From: Pseudobdellovibrionaceae bacterium
GTDB lineage: Bacteria; Bdellovibrionota; Bdellovibrionia; Bdellovibrionales; Bdellovibrionaceae
Assembly (NCBI GenBank): GCA_043779385.1
Contig: JAYWEU010000297.1
Location: 1-46,880, forward strand
Length of the DNA stretch: 46,880 nt
Direction of reading: 5' to 3'
Part shown: positions 9,187 to 35,100 of the stretch, one piece after another
Numbering within the stretch: the stretch's first letter is position 1
Layout: every line of letters starts with the position of its first letter
Position numbers and translations under genes: made by a program
Notes under the pieces: generated by a model
What the model was told of the DNA's origin: nothing
Database searches by the model: none
Seen by the model: only the letters and a program-made list of their open reading frames with translations

Positions 9187-10383
9187 CTAAACCAAGGGTA
9201 AATGAATCGACAGGCCCTGCTCCCTGGAGGTTAGGGTTACGGCCTCACAGCCACAAGCTAAAATCGAAAGAATCGATTGCAAGGTGGCCCATTCAAAGTG
9301 CGGCATCCCCGCAAAATAGAGTTTGATGATAATATGATTTTGATCTTTTTCGACCAAGCCTTGGATGCCTGACATTTCTAAATTGTTTCGTAAGGCTGTT
9401 TCTGAAATAGAAGTTAAGACCGATCCTAAAAAAGTAATGGCAAAGTTTTTAGGAACTTTCAAATGAAAGCGCTCTGTTGGAGGACTCCACGAAACGCCAC
9501 CAACCAGTTTGGTTAAATGATGGGATAGACTTTCACCAGCCACTAAAATATCAGCAACCTCACAAGACAATGCCCCCGGTTTTAAACTCAGAGCGCCTTC
9601 AAGTCCGTACATGGTTCCTGTCATCCTGGTCACCGAATTTTGGATGAGCTGCAATAACGTCGGCACTTTTTGATGGGACCGAACCGTGTCCTTTAAAGAA
9701 CTTAAACCTCTTAATAGGTCTGCTGACGTGATTCGATCTTCTGCGTGCTCTTGTAAAAGAAAAAAAATCGGATTGATTTGCTGGGTTAAGTGGGCGGCTT
9801 GTCCCGAAGCCAAAGTCAAAGCGCCAAGAATATTTCGAATTTCGCTGATCGCGGGAGTGGACGCTTTTTCTAATAAAATTAATTCCGAGGCCGTCCCCTT
9901 TTTTAAACTTTGTAAATGTTGACCGGCTTTTAAAGCTAGTTCAAGCATTCGGCTGCGAACCGTTTGATGCAAACAATTCTTTTTGACATCAATCACACAA
10001 AGACTTCCCACCGTTGTGCCATTTACAACGACCGGAAATCCAAAGTAAGAAACAATCCCATAACGCTGAATCAATTCTTGAGGCAGGTCAGGGTGTAGGG
10101 CGGTATCTTCTATAGATAAAGGTTGGCCCTTGTCGACGACAAATTGACAAAGGGACGAGCACCGATCTGTCGCCCTAGAAATCGCTAGGTCCGGAGGCAA
10201 GCCAATATGGGCTTTAAAGTATTGAATTTGGTGCATCACAATTGAGACCAGTGAAATCGGGAAGCCGGTGATCGACTTTGCTTCACCAACAATTTTCTGT
10301 AACACCACATCAAGCTTCGTATCGACAACGGTTCGGCCATGATCCATTGGCAAAGCTAAGTTTTCAAGTTTAGGAACACCCAT
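9187..10383 (-). CDS. GAF-domain protein with a degenerate histidine-kinase-like C-terminus
   Basis: 398-aa ORF starting at ATG with GAGGTG 5 nt upstream. It has an N-terminal GAF-like region (aa ~20-150). An H-box-like AISEIRNILGAL has Ser at the His position. No G1/G2 ATP-binding boxes are visible. Confidence 0.6.
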   Translation of the reverse strand: MGVPKLENLALPMDHGRTVVDTKLDVVLQKIVGEAKSITGFPISLVSIVMHQIQYFKAHIGLPPDLAISRATDRCSSLCQFVVDKGQPLSIEDTALHPDLPQELIQRYGIVSYFGFPVVVNGTTVGSLCVIDVKKNCLHQTVRSRMLELALKAGQHLQSLKKGTASELILLEKASTPAISEIRNILGALTLASGQAAHLTQQINPIFFLLQEHAEDRITSADLLRGLSSLKDTVRSHQKVPTLLQLIQNSVTRMTGTMYGLEGALSLKPGALSCEVADILVAGESLSHHLTKLVGGVSWSPPTERFHLKVPKNFAITFLGSVLTSISETALRNNLEMSGIQGLVEKDQNHIIIKLYFAGMPHFEWATLQSILSILACGCEAVTLTSREQGLSIHLPLV

Positions 10384-10555
10384 GTTTTCACCTCTACCTG
10401 ATTCATCGGATCAAGACCTGGACCTTTGCAGACAAGTTAATTTAACGAAGTCACCGATGCGACTGTGCCAGATTGAGCTGACCTTTAGGCTAAGGACAAT
10501 TGCCGAACGCCTGAATCGATGTGACAATAAGGACAGAACTTTTAGAGGAGATCTC

Positions 10556-11311
10556 ATGAAATATATTCTCATTTTGATAATGCTGATTCCGCATTTGACT
10601 TGGGCTGCAGGTCGCACTCGATCTAGAAAATCAACCAGCAGTTTTTCAGGATCCTCTTTCGGCGGCGACAGCCTCTTCAGAATTCAAGGCAGTTACGGAG
10701 TTGCCATCGTCGATCCCGTCGATCTTGCCAATTACCGGAAACAGTTTCTTTGGAATAATACGACAGCGGCCGATGGAATTTTGGATCGATTGCCTCAAAC
10801 TGATTTTGGCCTCGGAGTTCGCATTGGCCCCGGCCATCTGATGGTTCATTACTTTACGGCTCGGCAGGATCTTAAAAATACAGATATCGGAGCGACGGGT
10901 GTTTCTGTCAAAGACAGTTTCAATTATGCCGCGACCTATTTATTTTATGATGTGCCTTTTGTTTTTGGAGATTTTCTTTTAACAACAGGACTTGGCATCG
11001 GCAAGGCCAACAAATTTGAATATCACGAAACATTGACAGGTGGAAATGCGGAAGACATCACTTGGTCTGACGCTCCGATGGGTTATCGAGCGCGGGCTTC
11101 TTTAGGTTATCTTTACTCGAATACTTTCGGCATTTTCGTAGAACTTGGTTACGAAATAATGAAAAGCACTTTGACCGCGACCAGTGATTACCAATCAACC
11201 ATCAACGGTGTGCCTATTCGCAGTGGCCAAAAATTGATCGGCAGAAGTGGTGCGGTGGAGGCCGATCTTTCAGGGGCTCGTTTGGCGGCCGGGCTGATGT
11301 TGATGTTTTAA
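10556..11311 (+). CDS. outer-membrane beta-barrel protein
   Basis: The internal ATG 10556 is preceded by AGGAG. The signal peptide is MKYILILIMLIPHLTWA|AG. Alternating beta-strand-like sequence ends in the aromatic terminus LMLMF. The track ORF start 10382 is a spurious extension. Confidence 0.7.
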   Translation: MKYILILIMLIPHLTWAAGRTRSRKSTSSFSGSSFGGDSLFRIQGSYGVAIVDPVDLANYRKQFLWNNTTAADGILDRLPQTDFGLGVRIGPGHLMVHYFTARQDLKNTDIGATGVSVKDSFNYAATYLFYDVPFVFGDFLLTTGLGIGKANKFEYHETLTGGNAEDITWSDAPMGYRARASLGYLYSNTFGIFVELGYEIMKSTLTATSDYQSTINGVPIRSGQKLIGRSGAVEADLSGARLAAGLMLMF

Positions 11312-22838: not shown

Positions 22839-23404
22839 TTAATTCAACGCCAACTCCCGTGCGGCTAATAAATTATGCGTGCGACAAAGTAAACGTAAGT
22901 TATCAGGCAAACTCGACCCTCCCCAAGCCACAGGTGTCACGTGATCAATCTGAACTTGAAACTGAGATCTGCATCTGCTTCCATCAGGGCTTTGATATTG
23001 GCAGCAACCTTGCGCTTCGGCGTAGAGTTGTCTTTTCAGGTGAACCGAGATTGGCGCACGCTTTCCTTTGGGTGCTGCTAGGGGTGTCTTCTGCGCTTTT
23101 GGAGTTTCAAACTCCGTAGCGGAGCCCGCTTAGCGGCATCAATTCTTCGAATAGCAGAAGCTTCTGAATAGCCATATTTTTTAATCATCATGGTATACAT
23201 ACTATCAAAGCCAAGCTCGGCATAAAGCTTACGACTCATAATTTCTAGAATGTGGGATAACACGAGGTGCATAATCTTACGTTCAGTCTGAACAAGATTT
23301 TCGGTTCTGAACAGAAGGTCATCGTTAGAAATATATTTCAGATTACAGGTATCATCTTGAGATAGAACTGAATTCGAATTCAGAGCAGTAAAAGTTAATT
23401 CCAT
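22839..23404 (-). pseudogene. HNH endonuclease split by a frameshift
   Basis: The 108-aa N-terminal ORF (23404..23078) ends at TAG. A different reverse frame is open from 23129 to TAA at 22841..22839. It encodes ...KRAPISVHLKRQLYAEAQGCCQYQSPDGSRCRSQFQVQIDHVTPVAWGGSSLPDNLRLLCRTHNLLAARELALN, a clear HNH motif (DH...N...H-N). One indel between about 23081 and 23130 would fuse the two halves. Confidence 0.75.
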
Positions 23405-23786
23405 TTTGTCTCCTTTTAAAAAACTGAAAGGACCATATCATGGAATTTTTAAATGCAATTTTAGATTTTCTTGGAGTCAATTTGCTTTCATAGATGTCTG
23501 GAATTTGCCACTTATGAGGCCCATGATTGGCTTGCCTCAAGATTATTTTTTACGAATGTCGCAGGGATCGGAAAGTTTATTATCTCTGAATATAATTTGA
23601 TTGTGCGACTCGAAAATCACCTGCAAGAAGTATTTTAAAAAAAATTAAGAATAAATAAAATAACGCAAGGAATAACCGCAAGGGAGCCTCATTTACCCGA
23701 TTTCGAAAAGCATAAAGTTGAGTCATAAAAATTCCAGAAACTTCCTAGGCTTGTTTGTTAACGTTTCGTTTGATAAATGTTTAGCA

Positions 23787-24380
23787 ATGTCTTGGGAACA
23801 ATACTTTGAAAAAAATAAAGGCCGGGCTGTTAGGCCTCTTTATGCTAAGGCGATTGAGCTTATCTCGATGGCTCAATCAGGTGAGTTTACGGCCATAGAT
23901 CTTGGATGTGGGGCTGGTATAGAGTCAGTTGATCTGTTGTCGCGTGGTTGGAATGTCATTGCGATGGATCGGGAGCCAACTTCAATATCTGCTACCCTTG
24001 AACTAGCTGGCCCCCAGTTAGCTCAGAAATTAAAAACTGTTTGCAGTAGTTTCGAAGATTTATCTGATGTTCCTGCTGCCGAATTCATTTACTCGTACCA
24101 CTCGTTACCCTTCTGCCATGTTGATCATTTTGATCGATTGTGGACCTTAATTCAAAGTGCCGTGAAACCACATGGTATTTTTGCGGGAAGTTTTTTTGGT
24201 TTGAACGATGAGTGGGTCCAATCAGGCCATTCAACTGGCGTCAGCACAGAAACGCTCAAGCGATATCTTTTGAATTTCGATATTCTCCACTACGACGAAG
24301 TCCAAAAGGTAGGTCCTACAGCTTTGAGTGGACCTAAAAATTGGCACTTCATCGATGTCATTGGTAGAAAAAAGATCTGA
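23787..24380 (+). CDS. class I SAM-dependent methyltransferase (small-molecule type, TehB-like)
   Basis: SAM motif I is AIDLGCGAGIESVDLL, followed by the acidic loop VIAMDRE. Start ATG 23787 (MSWEQYFEKN) is preferred over the track TTG 23718. Confidence 0.75.
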   Translation: MSWEQYFEKNKGRAVRPLYAKAIELISMAQSGEFTAIDLGCGAGIESVDLLSRGWNVIAMDREPTSISATLELAGPQLAQKLKTVCSSFEDLSDVPAAEFIYSYHSLPFCHVDHFDRLWTLIQSAVKPHGIFAGSFFGLNDEWVQSGHSTGVSTETLKRYLLNFDILHYDEVQKVGPTALSGPKNWHFIDVIGRKKI

Positions 24381-24415
24381 GTAAAATCCACAGACCCTTT
24401 CAAGTCGTGCAGTTT

Positions 24416-25396
24416 TTACTTCTTAAATAAATGTGAATACTGCCCATAGCCAGCTTTTTCTAAATCCGCGGCTTTAATAAACTTCATGGATGCTGAATTC
24501 ATGCAATAACGCTCGCCGGTTGGTTCTGGCCCGTCGGGAAAAACATGCCCTAAGTGCGAATCCCCTAATTTCGAACGAACTTCAGTGCGATCTCCCAGGA
24601 AAACACGACGATCTTTTTTCAGAACAATATTTTGTTTTTCAATGGGACGACTAAAGCTGGGCCAGCCAGTGCCAGATTCATATTTATCAATCGAAGAAAA
24701 CAAGGGTTCTCCTGACACAACATCAACATAAATGCCGGCCTCATGATTGTCCCAATATTCATTTTTAAATGGTCTTTCGGTGCCTTCTTTTTGGGTCACA
24801 TCAAACTGTTCGGGCGTCAGTTTTTTCTTCAATTCCGCTTCGCTGGGTTTTACAAAAGCTTCTTTCACAGTTTCCTTCATGGTTTCCTTACCTTCAGGCT
24901 CGGCGATCAGTTTTTTGATCATGGCCTCGGTCTCGGCGTAAGCACCCTCGCCAGCATGGGTGTATCTAATTTCGCCTTTTTTATCGATCAAATAAATAAA
25001 GGGCCAATAATTTTGATGGTAGCTTTTCCAAAGTGCCGAGTCACTGTCTAGCACTACGGGATATTGAATTCCCAAGCTTTTAACGGCGGCCTGAACGTTG
25101 GCCGTTTCTTTTTCATGAGCTGTTTCCGGTGTATGAATTCCAATCACGCGAAATTGCGAGGCCGGAAATTGCTGATGCCATCCTTTAATATGTGGGATGA
25201 CATTCTTGCAGTTATAGCAGTCAAAAGTCCAAAATTCGATCAAGGTAACTTTGCCCTTGAGGTCCTTCAATTGAAGAGGCGGTGAATTAATCCAGACATT
25301 CGGACTGCTTGGAAATTCAACATTCAAAGGCTGAGCCAACAGCGTTCCAGACTGAAACAACCAAAAGCCCAAAGAAAGAATCCACAATTTACGCAT
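24416..25396 (-). CDS. msrB: periplasmic thioredoxin-like (TlpA/redoxin) domain fused to methionine-(R)-sulfoxide reductase MsrB
   Basis: 326-aa ORF with GGAGG upstream and signal peptide LFQSGTLLA|QP. The redoxin motif is WTFDCYNC. The MsrB half has [30 protein letters not shown] and RYCMNS. Confidence 0.9.
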
Positions 25397-25418
25397 ACAA
25401 CCTCCATTGAACCTGGTG

Positions 25419-25444
25419 TTCGTAAGTTTTGAGTATAAGGTTAC
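25419..25444 (-). promoter_or_regulatory. ECF-type promoter GTAACC-N16-CGAA driving Trx-MsrB
   Basis: Reverse strand reads GTAACC (25444..25439), 16 nt, CGAA (25422..25419). It lies 22 nt upstream of ATG 25396. The -35 box is one arm of a 9-bp inverted repeat. Confidence 0.65.
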
Positions 25445-25457
25445 AAAAAAATAAATT

Positions 25458-25482
25458 GTAACCTTTCCTAATTTTTAACGAA
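25458..25482 (+). promoter_or_regulatory. ECF-type promoter GTAACC-N15-CGAA driving msrA / ECF sigma / anti-sigma
   Basis: GTAACC (25458..25463), 15 nt, CGAA (25479..25482). It lies 21 nt upstream of ATG 25504 and is the mirror image of the reverse-strand element. Confidence 0.6.
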
Positions 25483-25503
25483 CTTAAATCATGCGAGGTG
25501 TCT

Positions 25504-26118
25504 ATGTCTCAAATTAAATCAGTCTTATTGGGATTCTTAACAGTTCTCTTAATTAATGGATCAGCGTCGGCTGAACCGGCCGGTTCGGCTTCTCAGAAAG
25601 CCGTGTTTGCGGGAGGTTGCTTTTGGTGTATGCAAGCCCCCTTCGATCAGCTGCCGGGTGTGATTTCGACGGCGGTGGGATATACGGGAGGACGCGTTGC
25701 CAATCCGACTTACGAGCAAGTCTCTCATGAAAATACAGGTCATGCGGAAGCCGTTGAAGTTCTTTTCGATCCTAAAAAAATATCCTACGAGAAAATTCTA
25801 GATGTTTACTGGCACCAAATTGATCCTACGACGGTGGACGCGCAGTTCGTTGATGTCGGGGACTCTTACCGGACCGCCATTTTTTATCAGAACGAGGATC
25901 AAAAGAAATTAGCGGAAGCTTCGAAAGCGGCTTGGGAAAAAAAAGGAACTTTTAAAAAGCCGATTGTGTCTCAGATCGTGTCGGCAGGGCCCTTCTATAA
26001 AGCCGAAGATTATCATCAGTCTTATTACAAAAAAAATCCCGTCAGATACAATTTTTATCGCTCTCGATCAGGTCGGGATCGATACTTGACTTCGATCTGG
26101 GGAAAAAGTGATCACTAA
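25504..26118 (+). CDS. msrA: periplasmic peptide-methionine (S)-S-oxide reductase MsrA
   Basis: Signal peptide LLINGSASA|EP. The catalytic motif is GGCFWCMQ, and HAEAVEV and DYHQ(S)YY motifs are present. ATG 25504 (AGG 5 nt upstream) is preferred over the track GTG 25498. Confidence 0.9.
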   Translation: MSQIKSVLLGFLTVLLINGSASAEPAGSASQKAVFAGGCFWCMQAPFDQLPGVISTAVGYTGGRVANPTYEQVSHENTGHAEAVEVLFDPKKISYEKILDVYWHQIDPTTVDAQFVDVGDSYRTAIFYQNEDQKKLAEASKAAWEKKGTFKKPIVSQIVSAGPFYKAEDYHQSYYKKNPVRYNFYRSRSGRDRYLTSIWGKSDH

Positions 26119-26158
26119 TTGATAGACTAAGAAGCGCTGTTAAAGTTATCGTTTCTTC

Positions 26159-26713
26159 ATGTCAAAGATCACGGATCCGCGTCAGCTGATGATTCAAGTC
26201 CAATCGGGCGATGAATTAGCTTACGCAAAGCTTTTAGAAATTATCTCGGTCCTAGTGCGCAGCTTCGCTCGAGGACGACTGCATCGCTGGCGTTTAAGTC
26301 AACAGATCGACGTCGAAGATATTGTCCAGGAGGTCTTAATGGCAGTGCACTTAAAAAAAGGAACTTACGATCCTTCCCAAGCTTTAGAGCCGTGGATATT
26401 TGCAATTGCCAACTATAAAATGGTCGATGCAATTCGCCGGCACCGATTTACAACGAATCTTGAAAATATTCCTGACCTTGCAGATCCATACTCGGCCGCT
26501 GACAGCAAAGAAACCAACGAAACTTTGCAGTGGGGATTTTTGCAGCTCAACGATCGTGAACGTGAGCTTCTGACTTTAGTTAAGCTGAATGAAAAATCCA
26601 TCAAGGAAGTTGCCCTAGAGATGAATTTGTCAGAGTCTGCCGTTAAAGTCGGTGTTCACCGAGCGATGAGTAAATTAAAAGAAATTTTCAAGGTGCCGTC
26701 CCATGAAGACTGA
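26159..26713 (+). CDS. ECF (sigma-70 family group 4) RNA polymerase sigma factor
   Basis: 184-aa ORF. Region 2 (DVEDIVQEVLMAVHLK, WIFAIANYKMVDAIRR) and region 4 (RERELLTLVKLNEKSIKEVALEMNLSESAVKVGVHRA) are recognisable. Confidence 0.85.
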   Translation: MSKITDPRQLMIQVQSGDELAYAKLLEIISVLVRSFARGRLHRWRLSQQIDVEDIVQEVLMAVHLKKGTYDPSQALEPWIFAIANYKMVDAIRRHRFTTNLENIPDLADPYSAADSKETNETLQWGFLQLNDRERELLTLVKLNEKSIKEVALEMNLSESAVKVGVHRAMSKLKEIFKVPSHED

Positions 26714-27338
26714 ACAACTGATTTTACAACTCAGTAAAGAGGCTAAGCCCACGGTGGCTTTTGTGCCTGTCAAAAGCTGGCTGTTGTGGTGCTTGGCACC
26801 GATGACCGTGATGATTTTGAGATTTTTTTTATGGCAAACGCAGTCGCCGAATTTGACGAAAAATTTTGATCTGGCTTTTTTACAGGAAACAATTTTGTTA
26901 GGATTATTATTTGGTTTAGTGCCTTATTTGACTTTCAAACAATCAGTGCCGGGATTTAAAAATTCTAAATTAATGTTTTTGACGGGGTTTCTCTTTAGCG
27001 GCTGGATTATTTTATTAATCTTACGAGCGACCCGTGCGGACATGGCTGATACGCAATCAGCTCATTTTTCCGAAGGACTGGCTTGCAGTTACGAGATCCT
27101 TCAAATGGCCCTTGTTCCTTTGGCTGTTTTATTCTTTATTTTAAGACGGGGAGCCTCGGTGCATCCCTTGCGAAGTGGAATCATGGCAGCCACCAGTGCA
27201 ACGATGATGGGAACTCTGGTTTTACAGGTGATCTGTCAATCCCCAAGCCCGGTTCATATTTTAGCGTATCACGTGGGCGCAGTTCTGGCGATAAGTCTGT
27301 TAGGAGCCGTTCTAGGACTCCGAATCTTGCGCTGGTAA
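26703..27338 (+). CDS. nrsF: DUF1109 / NrsF-type six-TM anti-sigma factor
   Basis: 211-aa ORF overlapping the sigma gene by 11 nt. The N-terminus MKTEQLILQLSKEAKP matches my memory of the DUF1109 signature (MxTxxLIxxL). About six TM segments. Confidence 0.65.
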   Translation: MKTEQLILQLSKEAKPTVAFVPVKSWLLWCLAPMTVMILRFFLWQTQSPNLTKNFDLAFLQETILLGLLFGLVPYLTFKQSVPGFKNSKLMFLTGFLFSGWIILLILRATRADMADTQSAHFSEGLACSYEILQMALVPLAVLFFILRRGASVHPLRSGIMAATSATMMGTLVLQVICQSPSPVHILAYHVGAVLAISLLGAVLGLRILRW

Positions 27339-27407
27339 ATAGTCTTGCTTGCACCGCAGGATTGGCAAACCCTAAATTCTAAGATGAACTAAGGATCGGG
27401 GGTTCCA

Positions 27408-28364
27408 GTGCATTTATTGACATTGTCGCTAGCGTTCTTTTTATTCCTTTTTCAAACCTCATTTGTTCAGGCGCAAAATATATCAAGTCAGATCAGTGAT
27501 CGATTGGTTCAAGATCTTGATTGCAAAAATATTTCGGTCGCAGGCATTTATTCTAAAATTCGCGAGGACGCCTATTCGATTCAAGCTCAGATTCCTGATG
27601 CCAACTGGGCGACGGGATATCTTGCGAATTGCTGGAGCCTGGCCCATTCGCAAAGATTAGTATTTATGCTTTCGCGGCTAGATCCTGCTGCAGACATGAG
27701 CGAAGCTAAGCTGCGCGGGGTTTTGGATATGTTCCGCGGTTCAAGCCCAGAAGAAGCAGCCCGATTTCCAAACCCTATTTTACAAGAAAGACCACTTCGT
27801 CAATACACTGTTTTTTCAACGGATCGAAATTTTTCAGAAGGCTCAAGCTTATATTCGTCTTTGCAAAAGGGATTTTCTGAGTCCGGAATCCTGGGGATCC
27901 CAAGAAATTTTAGAAACGAGATCGAAATTTTTCAGATTTACCACTTTCACCGCACAAAAAATCTGCCAATGTTTTTAGGAAATTGGGAAAGATCGACAAC
28001 TGAAAACCAGCAAAGTTTCGAACAGATCATTAAAGCGATCGATCAGCACCGTCTGAATCTTTTGGTTTTGCGGGCGGATCGTACGGTTCAACATGTGGTG
28101 ATTCCTAAGCGGTATGAAATCGCTAGTGACGGAAAATATATTTTTCATGTTTTTGATGCGAATTTTCCAGACCGCGAAAATGCTTTTGCGTATGATCCTC
28201 AAATTCAACAATTCGAAGGCGGCAGTGTGATGGGTGCTTTCTATCACACACCTTATTTAACAAAAGCCGTCGGAGTCTTTATCGTCGATGAGGGTGAAAA
28301 TAAAAGAATCGACGAAGCCTTGGTTCGTTACTACCAAAAGGCTTGTCGAAATTTAGTTAATTAA
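27408..28364 (+). CDS. secreted protein, possible papain-fold Cys-His-Asp hydrolase
   Basis: 318-aa ORF starting at GTG with signal peptide FLFQTSFVQA|QN. Candidate nucleophile is in GYLANCWSLAHS. A later QHVVIP...YIFHVFDANFP resembles the His-strand / Asp arrangement of C39-like peptidases. This is weak, by-eye evidence. Confidence 0.35.
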   Translation: MHLLTLSLAFFLFLFQTSFVQAQNISSQISDRLVQDLDCKNISVAGIYSKIREDAYSIQAQIPDANWATGYLANCWSLAHSQRLVFMLSRLDPAADMSEAKLRGVLDMFRGSSPEEAARFPNPILQERPLRQYTVFSTDRNFSEGSSLYSSLQKGFSESGILGIPRNFRNEIEIFQIYHFHRTKNLPMFLGNWERSTTENQQSFEQIIKAIDQHRLNLLVLRADRTVQHVVIPKRYEIASDGKYIFHVFDANFPDRENAFAYDPQIQQFEGGSVMGAFYHTPYLTKAVGVFIVDEGENKRIDEALVRYYQKACRNLVN

Positions 28365-28377
28365 ATTATTAAAAAAA

Positions 28378-30195
28378 CTATTCAGTGGCGCGGTTCGGAG
28401 TGCGATCACGGAACGTGCTGCGCGCGTGCGGGTTCGTGCTATTTTCAGTAAACCGCTTCGGCATACGACCAAAAGTCACACCCCGAGGAGGACGTTGTCC
28501 ACCCTCTGCCGGTGCGCGCTCTGATCCAACACTCACAGATCGCTCGGTGCGGGCACGAAAAGGCCGCTCTGATCTTTCAGCACTTGGCGCGCGAGAAGGT
28601 CTTGTTGATTCTTCACTAGAAGCCCTGCGTGCGGGACGAGTATCGCCCTCTGAAGAAGGTCTTCGTGTTGGACGGCTGCTTTCAGCTCCATCAACCGGAG
28701 AGGGTCTTCGTGTCGGGCGCGAGTCACTGTCACCCGAAGCTCTGCGTGTTGGACGAGAAGAACTTCGCTCATCGCTTCCACGACGGTTCGAAGGTCCACT
28801 ACTGCGACGGTCACTGCCACCACGGTCGTATCGACGAGGTCCTGATTCACGATCACCATCAGCACTCATACGAGGACCTGGCATATCAAAACGCTCAGCT
28901 TCAGAAAAAATATCAGGATTCATCATGGCTAAAAATCGACCCGCGACTTCTTCGCCTGTCATTTGGCCCAAAGCCTCTTTCCAAGAAGTGTCCATGACTT
29001 CGACGGCGCGAACTCCCGATTTTTCGCCAACGAATTTAGCCAGCATTGAAGAGATTTTTTTAGTTCCAATATCACGACGACTTGGAATCACGCCCTCGCG
29101 CATACGGGTTTTTGTCATTGTTTCAATTCGGCGTAAAATACCCATATGACTTGGCGTCACTAAGCTCATGGCAATTCCCGTTTTTCCACTTCGAGCTGTT
29201 CGACCAATCCGGTGAACGTAGCTGTCGAGTTCACGGGGTAGCGAATAGTTGATCACATGAGTGATATCTTTCACATCAAGACCGCGTGAAGCCACGTCTG
29301 TACAAATAAGGACTGTGACTTTGCGATCGCGGAAAGACTGCATGGTCTTTTCACGGGAACGCTGATCTTTATCGCCATGTAAACAGTCCACCTTGTAACC
29401 GCGATCAATCAAGTACTGACTTAAATCAGCGACCAAAGATTTAGTCTGACAAAAAATAACTCCGTAAAAATCTTCTGCCGCTTCGATCAATTTACAAAGA
29501 ATTTCAGGCTTATTGGATTCACGAGTGACATAATAAAGTTGATCAACCGTCGCTGATAACATTTCTTTTTTGTTCGATTGAACTTGCTGCGGATTGGTCA
29601 AATATTTATCAGCCACGCGGCGAACATCAGAGCTCATGGTTGCAGAAAATAACCAGATACGAGCTTGTTCACGATCAACAGAACTTAAAATTTTATCAAG
29701 TTCGTCTTTAAAGCCCATTGAAATCATCTCATCGGCTTCATCTAATATCAGTTGTTTCAGATTTCCTAATTTAAGAGTGCCGCGTTCAATATGATCAACA
29801 ACGCGACCCGGAGTTCCAACAACAACTTGCATGCCAGACTTCATACCTTGCAATTGTTCGCTGTAGCTAGCGCCACCATAAACCGGCAAAGCCCGAATGC
29901 CTTTGTGTTTACCCAGCATATTAATTTGACCGGCCACTTGCAATGCAAGCTCGCGAGTGGGGCAAAGAATTAATGTTTGCACGGCCTTGATCGAAGCATC
30001 AATTTGCTCGAGCATGGGAATTGAAAAGGCGGCTGTTTTACCAGTGCCCGTAGCTGCCAAACCAATGAAATCCGTGGGAGCTCCGAGAAGAATCGGTAAT
30101 GCTTGAGCTTGAATCGGACTTGGTGTGGTGTATCCCATTTCTGTAATTGCCTTAGCAACAGCGGGACTTAACGATAGTTCATCAAAAGTTTTCAC
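28378..30195 (-). CDS. DEAD-box ATP-dependent RNA helicase (DeaD/CsdA-like) with a long Arg/Ser/Pro-rich tail
   Basis: 605-aa ORF starting at GTG. It has the Q motif, AATGTGKT, DEAD (LILDEADEM), SAT, and HRIGRTARSG. The C-terminal ~160 aa are low-complexity. Confidence 0.9.
   Translation of the reverse strand: MKTFDELSLSPAVAKAITEMGYTTPSPIQAQALPILLGAPTDFIGLAATGTGKTAAFSIPMLEQIDASIKAVQTLILCPTRELALQVAGQINMLGKHKGIRALPVYGGASYSEQLQGMKSGMQVVVGTPGRVVDHIERGTLKLGNLKQLILDEADEMISMGFKDELDKILSSVDREQARIWLFSATMSSDVRRVADKYLTNPQQVQSNKKEMLSATVDQLYYVTRESNKPEILCKLIEAAEDFYGVIFCQTKSLVADLSQYLIDRGYKVDCLHGDKDQRSREKTMQSFRDRKVTVLICTDVASRGLDVKDITHVINYSLPRELDSYVHRIGRTARSGKTGIAMSLVTPSHMGILRRIETMTKTRMREGVIPSRRDIGTKKISSMLAKFVGEKSGVRAVEVMDTSWKEALGQMTGEEVAGRFLAMMNPDIFSEAERFDMPGPRMSADGDRESGPRRYDRGGSDRRSSGPSNRRGSDERSSSRPTRRASGDSDSRPTRRPSPVDGAESSRPTRRPSSEGDTRPARRASSEESTRPSRAPSAERSERPFRARTERSVSVGSERAPAEGGQRPPRGVTFGRMPKRFTENSTNPHARSTFRDRTPNRATE
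28595..28760 (-). repeat. imperfect tandem coding repeat (4-5 units of about 37-45 nt) encoding [ST]RP[TA]RR[AP]S
   Basis: The + strand shows recurring cttcgtgttggacg / ctgcgtgcgggacg / cttcgtgtcgggcg / ctgcgtgttggacg units. The peptide is SRPTRRASGDSDSRPTRRPSPVDGAESSRPTRRPSSEGDTRPARRASSEESTRPSRAPS. Locally GC-rich. Confidence 0.7.
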
Positions 30196-33279: not shown

Positions 33280-33559
33280 TAAGTTCTAGAAACCAGTTTT
33301 TAAAATCTTTCACACAAATTTCTAACTGGACTAAATTTTTATTTTTTGCTGACGTTTCGATTTCATCGGCAATGCAACCTAGCTCATTAAAGCCAAAGGA
33401 GGCGGCGTTACCTTTCAGTTGATGCCCAAGCCGCTCAAAGTAGGCCCAGTCTAAATTTAATAATTTTAAGTCACAATTTTCGACATCTCTTAAACGACGA
33501 TCCAGATAACGCTCACGCATTTCAAGAGGAATCAGGAAGGGATTAGTATCCATATTCAT
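33263..33559 (-). CDS. stand-alone histidine phosphotransfer (Hpt) protein
   Basis: 98-aa ORF with the Hpt signature HQLKGNAASFG. Its start overlaps the stop of the upstream regulator gene by 17 nt. Confidence 0.8.
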   Translation of the reverse strand: MNMDTNPFLIPLEMRERYLDRRLRDVENCDLKLLNLDWAYFERLGHQLKGNAASFGFNELGCIADEIETSAKNKNLVQLEICVKDFKNWFLELKGGLL

Positions 33560-34985
33560 TCAGCTTGCGATACAGGGTTTTACGATCAATCCCTAGCATT
33601 TTTGCAGTCTTATCCTTGGCTCCTTTATTAAATTCTAGAATTTTAATAATATGAGTTTTAACGATCTCATCCAGCAAGAAGTGGGGTACGGGGGTCTCAA
33701 TGCCCTTGGCACTTTGTTCTTCTTGATAGTTCGAAGATGTAATCAATGGCAGGGCCTTATTTTCTGAAGGCAGATGAGAAGGGTCTATCAACATATCGGC
33801 GGGAGTAATTTCTTCGGATTGGCAAAGCACCACGGCCCGCTCGACTGTATTTTCAAGCTCACGCACATTTCCAGACCAACGATGCCGAAGGAGAAAACTT
33901 AAAGTTTCATTTGAAAATCTTTTAGCAGTGGAAACATTCACCGATGAAAAGCGACGCAAGAAAAACTCTGCCAATGGCATAATATCTTCGGGTCTATCCC
34001 GAAGTGGAGGAATATGGATCGGGATCACATTTAACCTAAAGTACAAATCTTCACGAAACCGGTGTTCAATGACTTCTTGTTTTAGATTGCGGTGAGTGGC
34101 TGCTAAAATTCGGACATTGATATCCCGAAAACGATTTTCACCAATACGTTTTATTTTTCGATCTTGCAGAACTCGCAAAAGTTTTGCTTGCAAGGGCTGA
34201 CTTAAATCACCAATTTCATCCAGAAAAAGTGTTCCGCCTTCAGCCTCTTCAAAGAGGCCGGCTTTCTTGTCGATAGCGCCGGTGAAGGATCCCTTGGCAT
34301 AACCAAAAAGCTCGGCTTCAAGCAAAGTCTCAGGGATAGCAGCACAGTTAATAGCGATAAAGGGGCCATCACTGCGGCTGCCAGACTCATGAATAGTTCG
34401 GGCAATCACTTCTTTTCCCGTACCACTTTCGCCAGTGATTAAAATGTTGGCTTGGCTTTGCGCGACTCTGCGAGCTAAATCTAAGGCATTTCTAAATCCC
34501 TGACTTTTTGCCACCACCTTGTCCGAGGGAGTTTCTGTCTTTTCTTTCAAAGCCTGTCGAAGATGAGTGTTCTCATGAAGAATTTCTTTAAACCGCACCG
34601 CACGTTGAAGAGAAATTTCCAATTGCGGTAAATGAAGCGGTTTAACAATAAAATCAAAGGCGCCTGCTTGGATGGCCTCGTAAGCCGTTTGGATCGAGGA
34701 CTTCGAAGTGATAAGAATCATTGGCAGAGTCACGCCCCAAGCTCGAAGCTTTTTAATCAGCTCTGTCCCGGTTAAATCTGGAAGTAATAAATCTGTAATA
34801 ATGACATCAGCATAAAGATTTCTTTTTTTAGCCTCTTCAAGCAGCTGCAAGGGGCTTTCGAAAAATGTCATCGAATAACCACGAGGGGTGAAGTAAGCCT
34901 TTAGTAAATCTTGAACATCGATGTCATCTTCAATCACAATAATTTCTATATCTTGATTTTTGGTATTCCCGAGCGTCAGTGCCAT
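33543..34985 (-). CDS. sigma-54-dependent response regulator (NtrC family: REC + AAA+ + Fis-type HTH)
   Basis: REC domain (IIVIEDD...ITDLLLPD...K), Walker A GESGTGKE, GSFTGA loop, Walker B LFLDEIG, and a C-terminal HTH (TAKMLGIDRKTLYRKL). ATG 34985 is preferred over the track start 35042. Confidence 0.9.
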   Translation of the reverse strand: MALTLGNTKNQDIEIIVIEDDIDVQDLLKAYFTPRGYSMTFFESPLQLLEEAKKRNLYADVIITDLLLPDLTGTELIKKLRAWGVTLPMILITSKSSIQTAYEAIQAGAFDFIVKPLHLPQLEISLQRAVRFKEILHENTHLRQALKEKTETPSDKVVAKSQGFRNALDLARRVAQSQANILITGESGTGKEVIARTIHESGSRSDGPFIAINCAAIPETLLEAELFGYAKGSFTGAIDKKAGLFEEAEGGTLFLDEIGDLSQPLQAKLLRVLQDRKIKRIGENRFRDINVRILAATHRNLKQEVIEHRFREDLYFRLNVIPIHIPPLRDRPEDIMPLAEFFLRRFSSVNVSTAKRFSNETLSFLLRHRWSGNVRELENTVERAVVLCQSEEITPADMLIDPSHLPSENKALPLITSSNYQEEQSAKGIETPVPHFLLDEIVKTHIIKILEFNKGAKDKTAKMLGIDRKTLYRKLNEYGY

Positions 34986-35100
34986 AAGTTGAGTTCCTTT
35001 TTGACCAAGATTAACTACTTTACAAGGGGAAATTTGCCACAATAGGGGGGCCGAGTCTAACTTCTAATTGTGAAGATTCCGAGATATTTGGATATCGCGC

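Follow-up and report, generated by a model that had tools for sequence, protein, structure and literature searches.

Which promoters serve two divergent genes for exported methionine sulfoxide reductases (Msr) in a Pseudobdellovibrionaceae bacterium, and which sigma factor would read them, is the question raised by the 107-nt gap between these genes on contig JAYWEU010000297.1. The window, that is, the whole analysed stretch of 46,880 nt, was checked for the two outward-facing GTAACC/CGAA motifs that this gap holds (25419-25482) and for the products of the genes around it, among them an extracytoplasmic function (ECF) sigma factor and an NrsF-type anti-sigma factor. The 64-bp core is very probably a divergent promoter pair for the sigma factor of ECF16 (SigF) type whose gene lies 0.7 kb downstream. 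The analysis covers the identity, spacing, orientation and conservation of the motifs, the families of the gene products, and the co-occurrence of motif and sigma gene. The features of the module are as follows.

24416-25396, minus strand: exported fusion of a thioredoxin (Trx)-like domain (CYNC) and MsrB, 326 amino acids (Pfam SelR, 2e-46, and AhpC-TSA/Redoxin)
25419-25444, minus strand: predicted ECF16 promoter P(msrB), with -35 GTAACC at 25444-25439, a 16-nt spacer and -10 CGAA at 25422-25419
25437-25465, no strand: inverted repeat AAGGTTACAA/TTGTAACCTT, two opposed -35 boxes round an A/T-rich core
25458-25482, plus strand: predicted ECF16 promoter P(msrA-sigma-nrsF), with -35 GTAACC at 25458-25463, a 15-nt spacer and -10 CGAA at 25479-25482
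25504-26118, plus strand: exported MsrA, encoded by the first gene of the sigma operon, 204 amino acids counted from the ATG at 25504 (Pfam PMSR, 3.3e-65)
26159-26713, plus strand: ECF sigma factor, ECF16/SigF-like, 184 amino acids (Pfam Sigma70_r2, r4_2 and Sigma70_ECF)
26703-27338, plus strand: NrsF/DUF1109 membrane anti-sigma factor, 211 amino acids (Pfam PF06532, 1.9e-22, full length)

The divergent intergenic region

The original prediction described mirror-image motifs, GTAACC-N16-CGAA on the minus strand and GTAACC-N15-CGAA on the plus strand, ending 22 nt before the Trx-MsrB ATG (25396) and 21 nt before the msrA ATG (25504), respectively, and these coordinates and distances are exact on the sequence. 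At the -35 box both motifs are extended to TGTAACC, with N16 ahead of msrB and N15 ahead of msrA-sigma-nrsF. The mirror symmetry, however, is confined to the two -35 boxes, as the spacers are unlike in sequence and 1 nt apart in length. The inverted repeat, first noted as the 9-bp arms AAGGTTACA (25437-25445) and TGTAACCTT (25457-25465), is indeed perfect, but a repeat finder extends it to 10 nt (AAGGTTACAA at 25437-25446 and TTGTAACCTT at 25456-25465), with 9 nt between the arms. Shine-Dalgarno sequences are GGAGG at 25405-25401 for Trx-MsrB and GAGG at 25495-25498 for msrA. If the transcription start sites (TSSs) are placed after the model of Bradyrhizobium japonicum ecfF, where the TSS lies 6 nt past the -10 box (PMC3420878), they are predicted about 6-8 nt past CGAA, at ~25486-25489 on the plus strand and ~25412-25414 on the minus strand, and the leaders would be roughly 15-17 nt long. 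The predicted TSSs are ~74-77 bp apart, so that the two sigma-4/-35 contacts would nearly abut.

Chance does not explain the GTAACC/CGAA motifs in the window. As predicted, a scan of the window identified no GTAACC-N15/16-CGAA beyond these two, against 0.09-0.16 expected; with spacers of 14 to 18 nt the motif is found 3 times vs 0.23 expected, and 0 of 100 dinucleotide shuffles reached 3. It is therefore hardly credible that the motifs are chance matches or dead relics, with msrA and msrB transcribed from unrecognised housekeeping promoters. Weak sigma70 promoters could go unnoticed in this A/T-rich region, and promoter activity is predicted from sequence; yet a sigma70-type scan of 25397-25503 found no sigma70-like site, one copy on each strand of the 107-nt gap has a joint probability of ~7e-9 under a mononucleotide model, and the boxes stay invariant across relatives in which up to 9 of 16 spacer positions have changed. 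A sigma-less relative described below shows the form that a relic takes, which differs from the window. A search of 23500-28600 against Rfam returned no family, and one sub-threshold match to a small nucleolar RNA was ascribed to chance.

Two further sites were recorded elsewhere in the window. An exact GTAACC-N17-CGAA lies at 11126-11152 (minus strand), antisense inside the open reading frame (ORF) 10382-11311, and a 9/10 match lies at 34031-34057 (plus strand), antisense inside the sigma54-activator gene 33543-35042. Both are probably chance matches. As the mismatch-tolerant scan gave just these two antisense intragenic sites, no further members of the regulon within the window were accepted.

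The closest genomes are metagenome-assembled genomes (MAGs) of the Pseudobdellovibrionaceae, phylum Bdellovibrionota. By sigma factor identity the relatives group at 96-97% (L001-L004 and L011), 86% (L012) and 83-84% (L005, L006 and L023), and every one of them retains both motifs, spaced N16 and N15 as in the window. Counted over three diverged lineages (the window, L012 and L005/L023), box positions are invariant in 20 of 20 cases and spacer positions in 15 of 31 (Fisher p = 4e-5); for P(msrB), the boxes are invariant in L011, L012, L005 and L023 while 11 of the 16 spacer positions vary. The gap between the -35 hexamers measures 13, 12 and 10 nt in the three lineages, and L005 carries a 42-nt insertion within the msrB leader that leaves the promoter intact. 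Boxes and spacings thus stay fixed while the distance between the promoters drifts, which fits two independent promoters and not a fixed palindromic operator.

The same comparison makes it very unlikely that a dimeric factor, for example a redox-sensing repressor, controls both genes by using the repeat TTGTAACCTT/AAGGTTACAA as its operator, with the CGAA boxes incidental. A perfect 10-nt repeat centred in a divergent intergenic region does have the classic look of an operator, and its arms are conserved in relatives. The spacing of the arms, however, shifts among close relatives (9, ~8 and ~6 nt), which a dimeric binder would not tolerate, and in L012 the repeat is reduced to 7 nt, TGTAACC alone. 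The CGAA boxes, which stand outside the repeat at fixed N16 and N15, are equally invariant although the spacers diverge, and in unrelated genomes single copies of the same half-site with CGAA stand ahead of bufA1 or sigma genes. Besides sigma-nrsF, no candidate regulator gene was identified in the module with Pfam. The operator was rejected on the varying half-site spacing and on the equal conservation of the outlying CGAA, and the repeat needs no separate role, because two opposed -35 boxes look that way.

One syntenic locus without the sigma gene, L021 (JAYSSI010000027.1), is collinear with ~15.9-35.6 kb of the window, with two differences. When L021 5664-7001 is compared with window 24416-27408, the segment bounded exactly by the stop codons of msrA and nrsF is missing, and the L021 MsrB possesses no Trx domain, its signal peptide and linker being kept. 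The minus-strand motif in L021 is destroyed (GGTTAC to GATGAG, with no TTCG), and the plus-strand motif has decayed to GTAACT-N15-AGAA. The window and L021 thus form a natural with/without comparison in which intact boxes co-occur with the sigma gene. In this one comparison, the cassette of sigma and nrsF, the promoter boxes and the MsrB Trx domain are gained or lost together, in either direction; no compositional sign of a recent acquisition of the cassette was found. Conservation of the boxes, their decay in L021 and the literature on related systems all support the predicted pair of outward ECF promoters for msrB and msrA-sigma-nrsF.

Gene products and expression of the sigma gene

The Trx-MsrB protein matches the NCBIfam MsrB model TIGR00357 (1e-59), and its best match, in two stretches, is to the PilB-type Trx-MsrA-MsrB model PRK14018, so that it resembles PilB with the MsrA domain on a separate gene. 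The MsrA protein matches the NCBIfam msrA model (1.8e-61). Signal peptides were judged by eye, a signal-peptide-like N-terminus of 21 residues in Trx-MsrB and MSQIKSVLLGFLTVLLINGSASA in MsrA, and on these both enzymes are inferred to be periplasmic. The motifs GCFWC (MsrA), RYCMN and CYNC were read in the translations. MsrA and MsrB domains, cysteine motifs, a Trx-like CxxC and putative export signals are all present, as in a PilB-like thiol-dependent Msr system. The MsrB domain reads SGTGWPSF and has no CxxC zinc motifs. Many MsrBs, the PilB type included, carry a recycling cysteine at that site (SGCGWPSF). It may be the fused Trx-like domain (CYNC) that directly reduces MsrB's catalytic sulfenate. 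No membrane electron donor (CcdA/DsbD) for the Trx domain turned up in the module or in the 16 annotated neighbours scanned, and the predicted 'self-contained' character of the module is therefore unproven.

In the sigma factor, Sigma70_r2 spans residues 32-96 and Sigma70_r4_2 residues 129-173, so that it possesses regions 2 and 4 only, as group-4 sigma factors do; its top NCBIfam models are unnamed, with scores below their cut-offs. The nrsF gene is adjacent downstream and overlaps the sigma gene by 11 nt, and the Pfam matches (Sigma70_r2/r4 and PF06532) bear out the predicted order of an ECF sigma gene followed by an overlapping DUF1109/NrsF anti-sigma gene. The NCBIfam equivalog model for NrsF gives a weak match (25 bits vs a cut-off of 300), which marks the protein as a divergent family member. 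In an alignment of 8 NrsF proteins, taken from the window clade and from five distant loci, Cys128 and Cys178 are invariant; they correspond to C129 and C179 of OsrA (PMC3420878). The signalling role of these cysteines is taken from work on Bradyrhizobium, Brucella and Sinorhizobium (PMC3420878, PMC8315932, PMC6180224).

From these parts a scheme of regulation can be proposed. In unstressed cells the six-helix membrane anti-sigma factor NrsF would hold the sigma factor. Oxidants such as hypochlorite or peroxide would act on the two conserved NrsF cysteines, and the released sigma factor, with RNA polymerase, would bind TGTAACC (-35) and CGAA (-10) on both strands. The leftward transcript would encode the exported Trx-MsrB fusion and the rightward transcript exported MsrA followed by sigma and nrsF, so that both stereospecific periplasmic methionine sulfoxide reductases would be induced together. 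Read-through into sigma-nrsF would close a positive loop, with NrsF as a built-in brake. The initiation sites, the dependence on the sigma factor, the read-through from msrA to sigma and the inducing signal are predicted parts of this scheme.

How much of the sigma factor would come from the rightward transcript may depend on a further feature, located between msrA and the sigma gene.

26108-26172, plus strand: conserved msrA-sigma intercistronic element, with a sigma70-like TTGATA-N16-TAAAGT at 26119-26146 and an RNA stem-loop

The msrA and sigma genes are separated by 40 nt, conserved in five lineages, in which TAAAGT is invariant and TTGATA near-invariant. The stem-loop (26108-26172) pairs the AUG of the sigma gene, with a folding energy of -17.3 kcal/mol and a z-score of -1.9; compensatory changes are found in 3 of the 20 consensus pairs over the five lineages, and a few pairs are broken. 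From msrA to the end of nrsF, including the stretch directly ahead of sigma, no ECF-type motif of 8/10 or better with a usable -35 box was identified. The statement in the original prediction that the sigma gene lacks its own promoter-like motif consequently stands for ECF motifs but not for sigma70-like ones.

This element allows another reading, in which the ECF16 promoters are real, yet most transcription of sigma-nrsF starts at a separate housekeeping promoter (26119-26146), the result being a simple feed-forward regulon with no meaningful autoregulation. Such an arrangement is rather unlikely. Besides the conservation of the gap, it is favoured by the sigma70-type scan, which scores TTGATA-N16-TAAAGT at 9/12; by the sigma ATG, which lacks a Shine-Dalgarno sequence and, as in leaderless mRNAs, is close to the predicted start (~6 nt); by the stem-loop, which would hamper translation of sigma off the long transcript; and by the basal second promoter inferred for bcrS in Brucella (PMC8315932). 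However, 9/12 matches occur in the region at chance frequency (8 found vs 5.9 expected), the TG of an extended -10 is not conserved, and no terminator-like site was found between msrA and sigma. Autoregulation has moreover been reported or inferred for the ECF16 factors of Bradyrhizobium, Brucella and Sinorhizobium (PMC3420878, PMC8315932, PMC6180224), a SigF-type promoter also stands ahead of sigF-nrsF in Azospira (PMC4436054), and a basal promoter and inducible read-through are mutually compatible. With autoregulation from the divergent pair retained as the preferred reading, it is plausible that a basal promoter acts within the operon, or that translation of sigma off the long mRNA is damped. 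The position of msrA ahead of sigma, with a hairpin between them that sequesters the start codon, could be a clade-specific route to much enzyme and little sigma factor off a single promoter.

Related loci, points of doubt and neighbouring genes

Beyond the window clade the identity of sigma homologues falls to ~40%. An overlapping NrsF/DUF1109 gene follows the sigma gene in all five distant homologues looked up and in the best plasmid hit. All 7 copies of GTAACC-N15/16-CGAA in five distant loci are upstream of, and facing, either the sigma operon or a bufA1-mbnB-hvfC-doxX operon, and the N15 form is found ahead of a distant NrsF-linked sigma gene in L013. The bufA1-mbnB-hvfC-doxX (bufferin-type) operons beside NrsF-linked sigma genes are located at L017 2114-2502, L019 7286-9885 and L020 11294-13924; each is preceded by TGTAACC-N16-CGAAC, matching the known targets of Caulobacter SigF.

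Metagenomes from JGI were scanned with the pattern TTCG-N16-GGTTAC-N5-35-GTAACC-N15/16-CGAA, which returned at least 120 stretches; 80 of these were inspected as loci (L025-L104), with the following census.

Sigma homologue beside the pair: 60 of 80 loci
Detectable nrsF: 30 of 80 loci, many contigs being short
msrA and/or msrB near the pair: 12 of 80 loci
BufA1 precursor as first divergent gene: at least 17 among the 80 loci
DsbD_TM-Redoxin-Thioredoxin_10 fusion as first divergent gene: 5 among the 80 loci
Thioredoxin-like protein among otherwise unclassified flanking ORFs: ~10 among the 80 loci

With at least 120 back-to-back pairs, the window is one instance of a widespread arrangement. In related systems a CcdA-Trx fusion (DsbD_TM-Redoxin-Thioredoxin_10) is often under the same promoter pair.

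Among the 80 pairs the gap between the -35 hexamers has peaks at 14, 23 and 32-34 nt, which recur with a period of ~10 bp; the vector strength is 0.56, with p < 2e-4 vs uniform and smoothed nulls, a statistic that ignores shared ancestry. The longer gaps usually have an A/T-rich centre within GC-rich DNA. Pairs linked to Msr genes lie mostly at gaps of 13-24 nt; the gap in the window (25445-25457) is 13 nt, and in the window clade it ranges from 10 to 13 nt. That back-to-back ECF16 pairs are a constrained architecture and not two independent promoters is a doubtful proposition. Were it true, the geometry would couple the promoters of a pair, whether by shared A/T-rich UP-like DNA, by cooperation or by mutual exclusion, and thereby set the ratio of sigma factor to effector synthesis; in the tightest class, where most of the Msr-linked pairs fall, that of the window among them, the sigma-4 domains of two holoenzymes would abut.

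Several points weigh against the reading of the core as an autoregulated ECF16 promoter pair with Msr targets. The organism is known solely from MAGs, and the function of the promoters is a prediction from their sequence. Placement of the sigma factor in ECF16 is based on the context of the gene and of its homologues, not on ECF classifier models. The N15 spacer of the plus-strand promoter is the rarer form, found in 7 of 160 promoter instances of the census, whose search pattern favoured N16. For the comparison without the sigma gene there is one locus, L021, and the reading covers that locus alone. The TTGATA/TAAAGT element and the hairpin could mean that sigma-nrsF is expressed mostly from its own promoter, or that sigma is poorly translated off the long transcript; if so, the autoregulatory loop would be weakened, a change that modifies the simple picture and does not overturn it. 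Finally, the link to Msr genes is not uniform. The SigF consensus given in the original prediction is the published one, and Msr genes are recurrent targets in ECF16 systems, but the msrA homologues of Caulobacter were not SigF-dependent in a heavy-metal microarray (PMC3511200).

Downstream of nrsF one further gene was considered as a possible member of the module.

27408-28364, plus strand: exported protein of unknown family, 318 amino acids (no Pfam, NCBIfam or PDB match)

This gene also adjoins msrA in the sigma-less L021, with the same upstream element, and is therefore not counted in the regulon. The element, TTGGCA-N17-TGAA(C/A)T, stands ahead of the gene in all lineages, L021 included, and has the form TTGGCA-N17-TGAACT in the window (27362-27390). 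The gene thus probably has its own control element and may also receive read-through from the operon. A search of 5.8 billion proteins gave just 9 homologues of the protein, and its invariant residues, Cys75-Trp76, His229, Asp250 and Asn252, suggest a papain-like Cys-His-Asp hydrolase. The AlphaFold model is of moderate confidence (pLDDT 65), and a Foldseek search with it returned nothing below E = 0.06; a search of JGI metagenomes with the family gave no match.

Further downstream, 28378-30195 (minus strand) encodes a DEAD-box helicase with a long low-complexity C-terminal tail, rich in Arg, Ser and Pro, in which SRPTRRPS-like units are repeated; a local rise of GC content to 0.59 at 28400-28800 coincides with this tail. 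On the other side of the module, the 1.6-kb segment 22807-24415 is missing from the 94-96% identical L001 and present in the 83% relative L012. It contains small ORFs, a TehB-like methyltransferase gene (23718-24380) and a stretch of low GC content (~0.34 at 23200-23800), and is an indel polymorphism adjoining the 3' end of msrB.

Comparison with known systems

The motif of the window agrees with the published ECF-group promoter models, the comparison with which had been proposed as a check. The Caulobacter SigF site is GTAACC-N16-CGAA (PMC3511200), the group-16 consensus is quoted as tGTAACc-N16-CGAA (PMC3420878), and (T/C)GTAAC-N17-CGAA is quoted in the Brucella study (PMC8315932). The link to Msr genes is firmer for Bradyrhizobium, Azospira and Brucella than for Caulobacter. 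No paper on a SigF/NrsF system in Bdellovibrio was found in the literature, and a 2026 paper on Cupriavidus offered nothing on ECF16 that could be compared.

In Bradyrhizobium japonicum, EcfF promoters have the form GTAAC(g/a)-N14-15-(c/t)CG(t/a) and are found ahead of ecfF-osrA, of three msr genes and of one CcdA-like gene (PMC3420878). As in the window, EcfF-OsrA consists of an ECF sigma factor and an overlapping DUF1109 anti-sigma factor with two cysteines (C129 and C179 there, C128 and C178 here), and the OsrA cysteines were found to be required for function. Its promoter is autoregulated, and the N14-15 form is taken as covering both spacings of the window. The regulon consists mostly of peptide methionine sulfoxide reductases with a CcdA-like 'cytochrome c biogenesis' protein. 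Unlike the window, B. japonicum, an alphaproteobacterium, has its msr genes in scattered units, neither in nor beside the sigma operon, and induction by hydrogen peroxide has been demonstrated there.

The SigF/NrsF system of Azospira suillum answers reactive chlorine species and drives a divergent operon for periplasmic methionine sulfoxide repair (PMC4436054). Its sigF-nrsF and yedY1Z1-mrpX genes form a compact module like that of the window, in which both sides of a single intergenic region carry a SigF-type promoter; the regulon comprises just these neighbours, and induction is specific to reactive chlorine species. The effectors differ, being the molybdoenzyme MsrP/YedYZ and a sacrificial methionine-rich peptide in Azospira and thiol-based MsrA and Trx-MsrB in the window. 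In Azospira the sigma gene comes first after its promoter, whereas in the window msrA does.

BcrS-AbcS of Brucella melitensis, also ECF16, is autoregulated and induced by hypochlorous acid, and its TGTAAC -35 and GCGAA(A/T) -10 boxes were mapped by 5'-RACE (PMC8315932). Boxes were mapped for both the sigma operon and a target, the anti-sigma factor carries the same two cysteines, and the output is of Msr type, as here. Unlike the window, Brucella has the MsrPQ-type bcrXQP as target, a larger regulon and links to type IV secretion.

Caulobacter SigF-NrsF shares with the window the prototype GTAACC-N16-CGAA and the NrsF cysteines, and Sinorhizobium meliloti RpoE7-EcfR7, for which two promoters are predicted in a divergent gap (PMC6180224), shares the placement of promoters on both sides of such a gap. 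Both differ from it in their main targets, DUF692/DUF2063 (bufferin-type) operons, and in their signals, chromate and cadmium. Neisseria sigmaE (Ecf), which controls msrAB/pilB (PMC2893595), is likewise an autoregulated ECF sigma factor with a tiny regulon and an envelope Trx-MsrA-MsrB effector. It belongs, however, to another ECF group, and as it has a cytoplasmic ZAS anti-sigma factor and a different promoter (GTMAGBWTT-N12-13-CGTCTAAH), it is an analogue in output and not a relative.

Against this background the reading of the locus is sound, and the locus is an ordinary new example of the widespread, already described ECF16 SigF/NrsF design; for specialists the pattern is confirmed and nothing is overturned. 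The locus gains an annotation that includes promoters, predicted TSSs, operon structure and a regulator. The SigF/NrsF (ECF16) oxidant response, so far studied in Alpha- and Betaproteobacteria, is extended to the Pseudobdellovibrionaceae (Bdellovibrionota), where it would be wired to thiol-dependent periplasmic MsrA and Trx-MsrB and not to MsrPQ or bufferin operons. What sets the window apart among these systems is the position of msrA between promoter and sigma gene, the presence of both classical Msr enzymes under one promoter pair, and a lineage that is new for the system.

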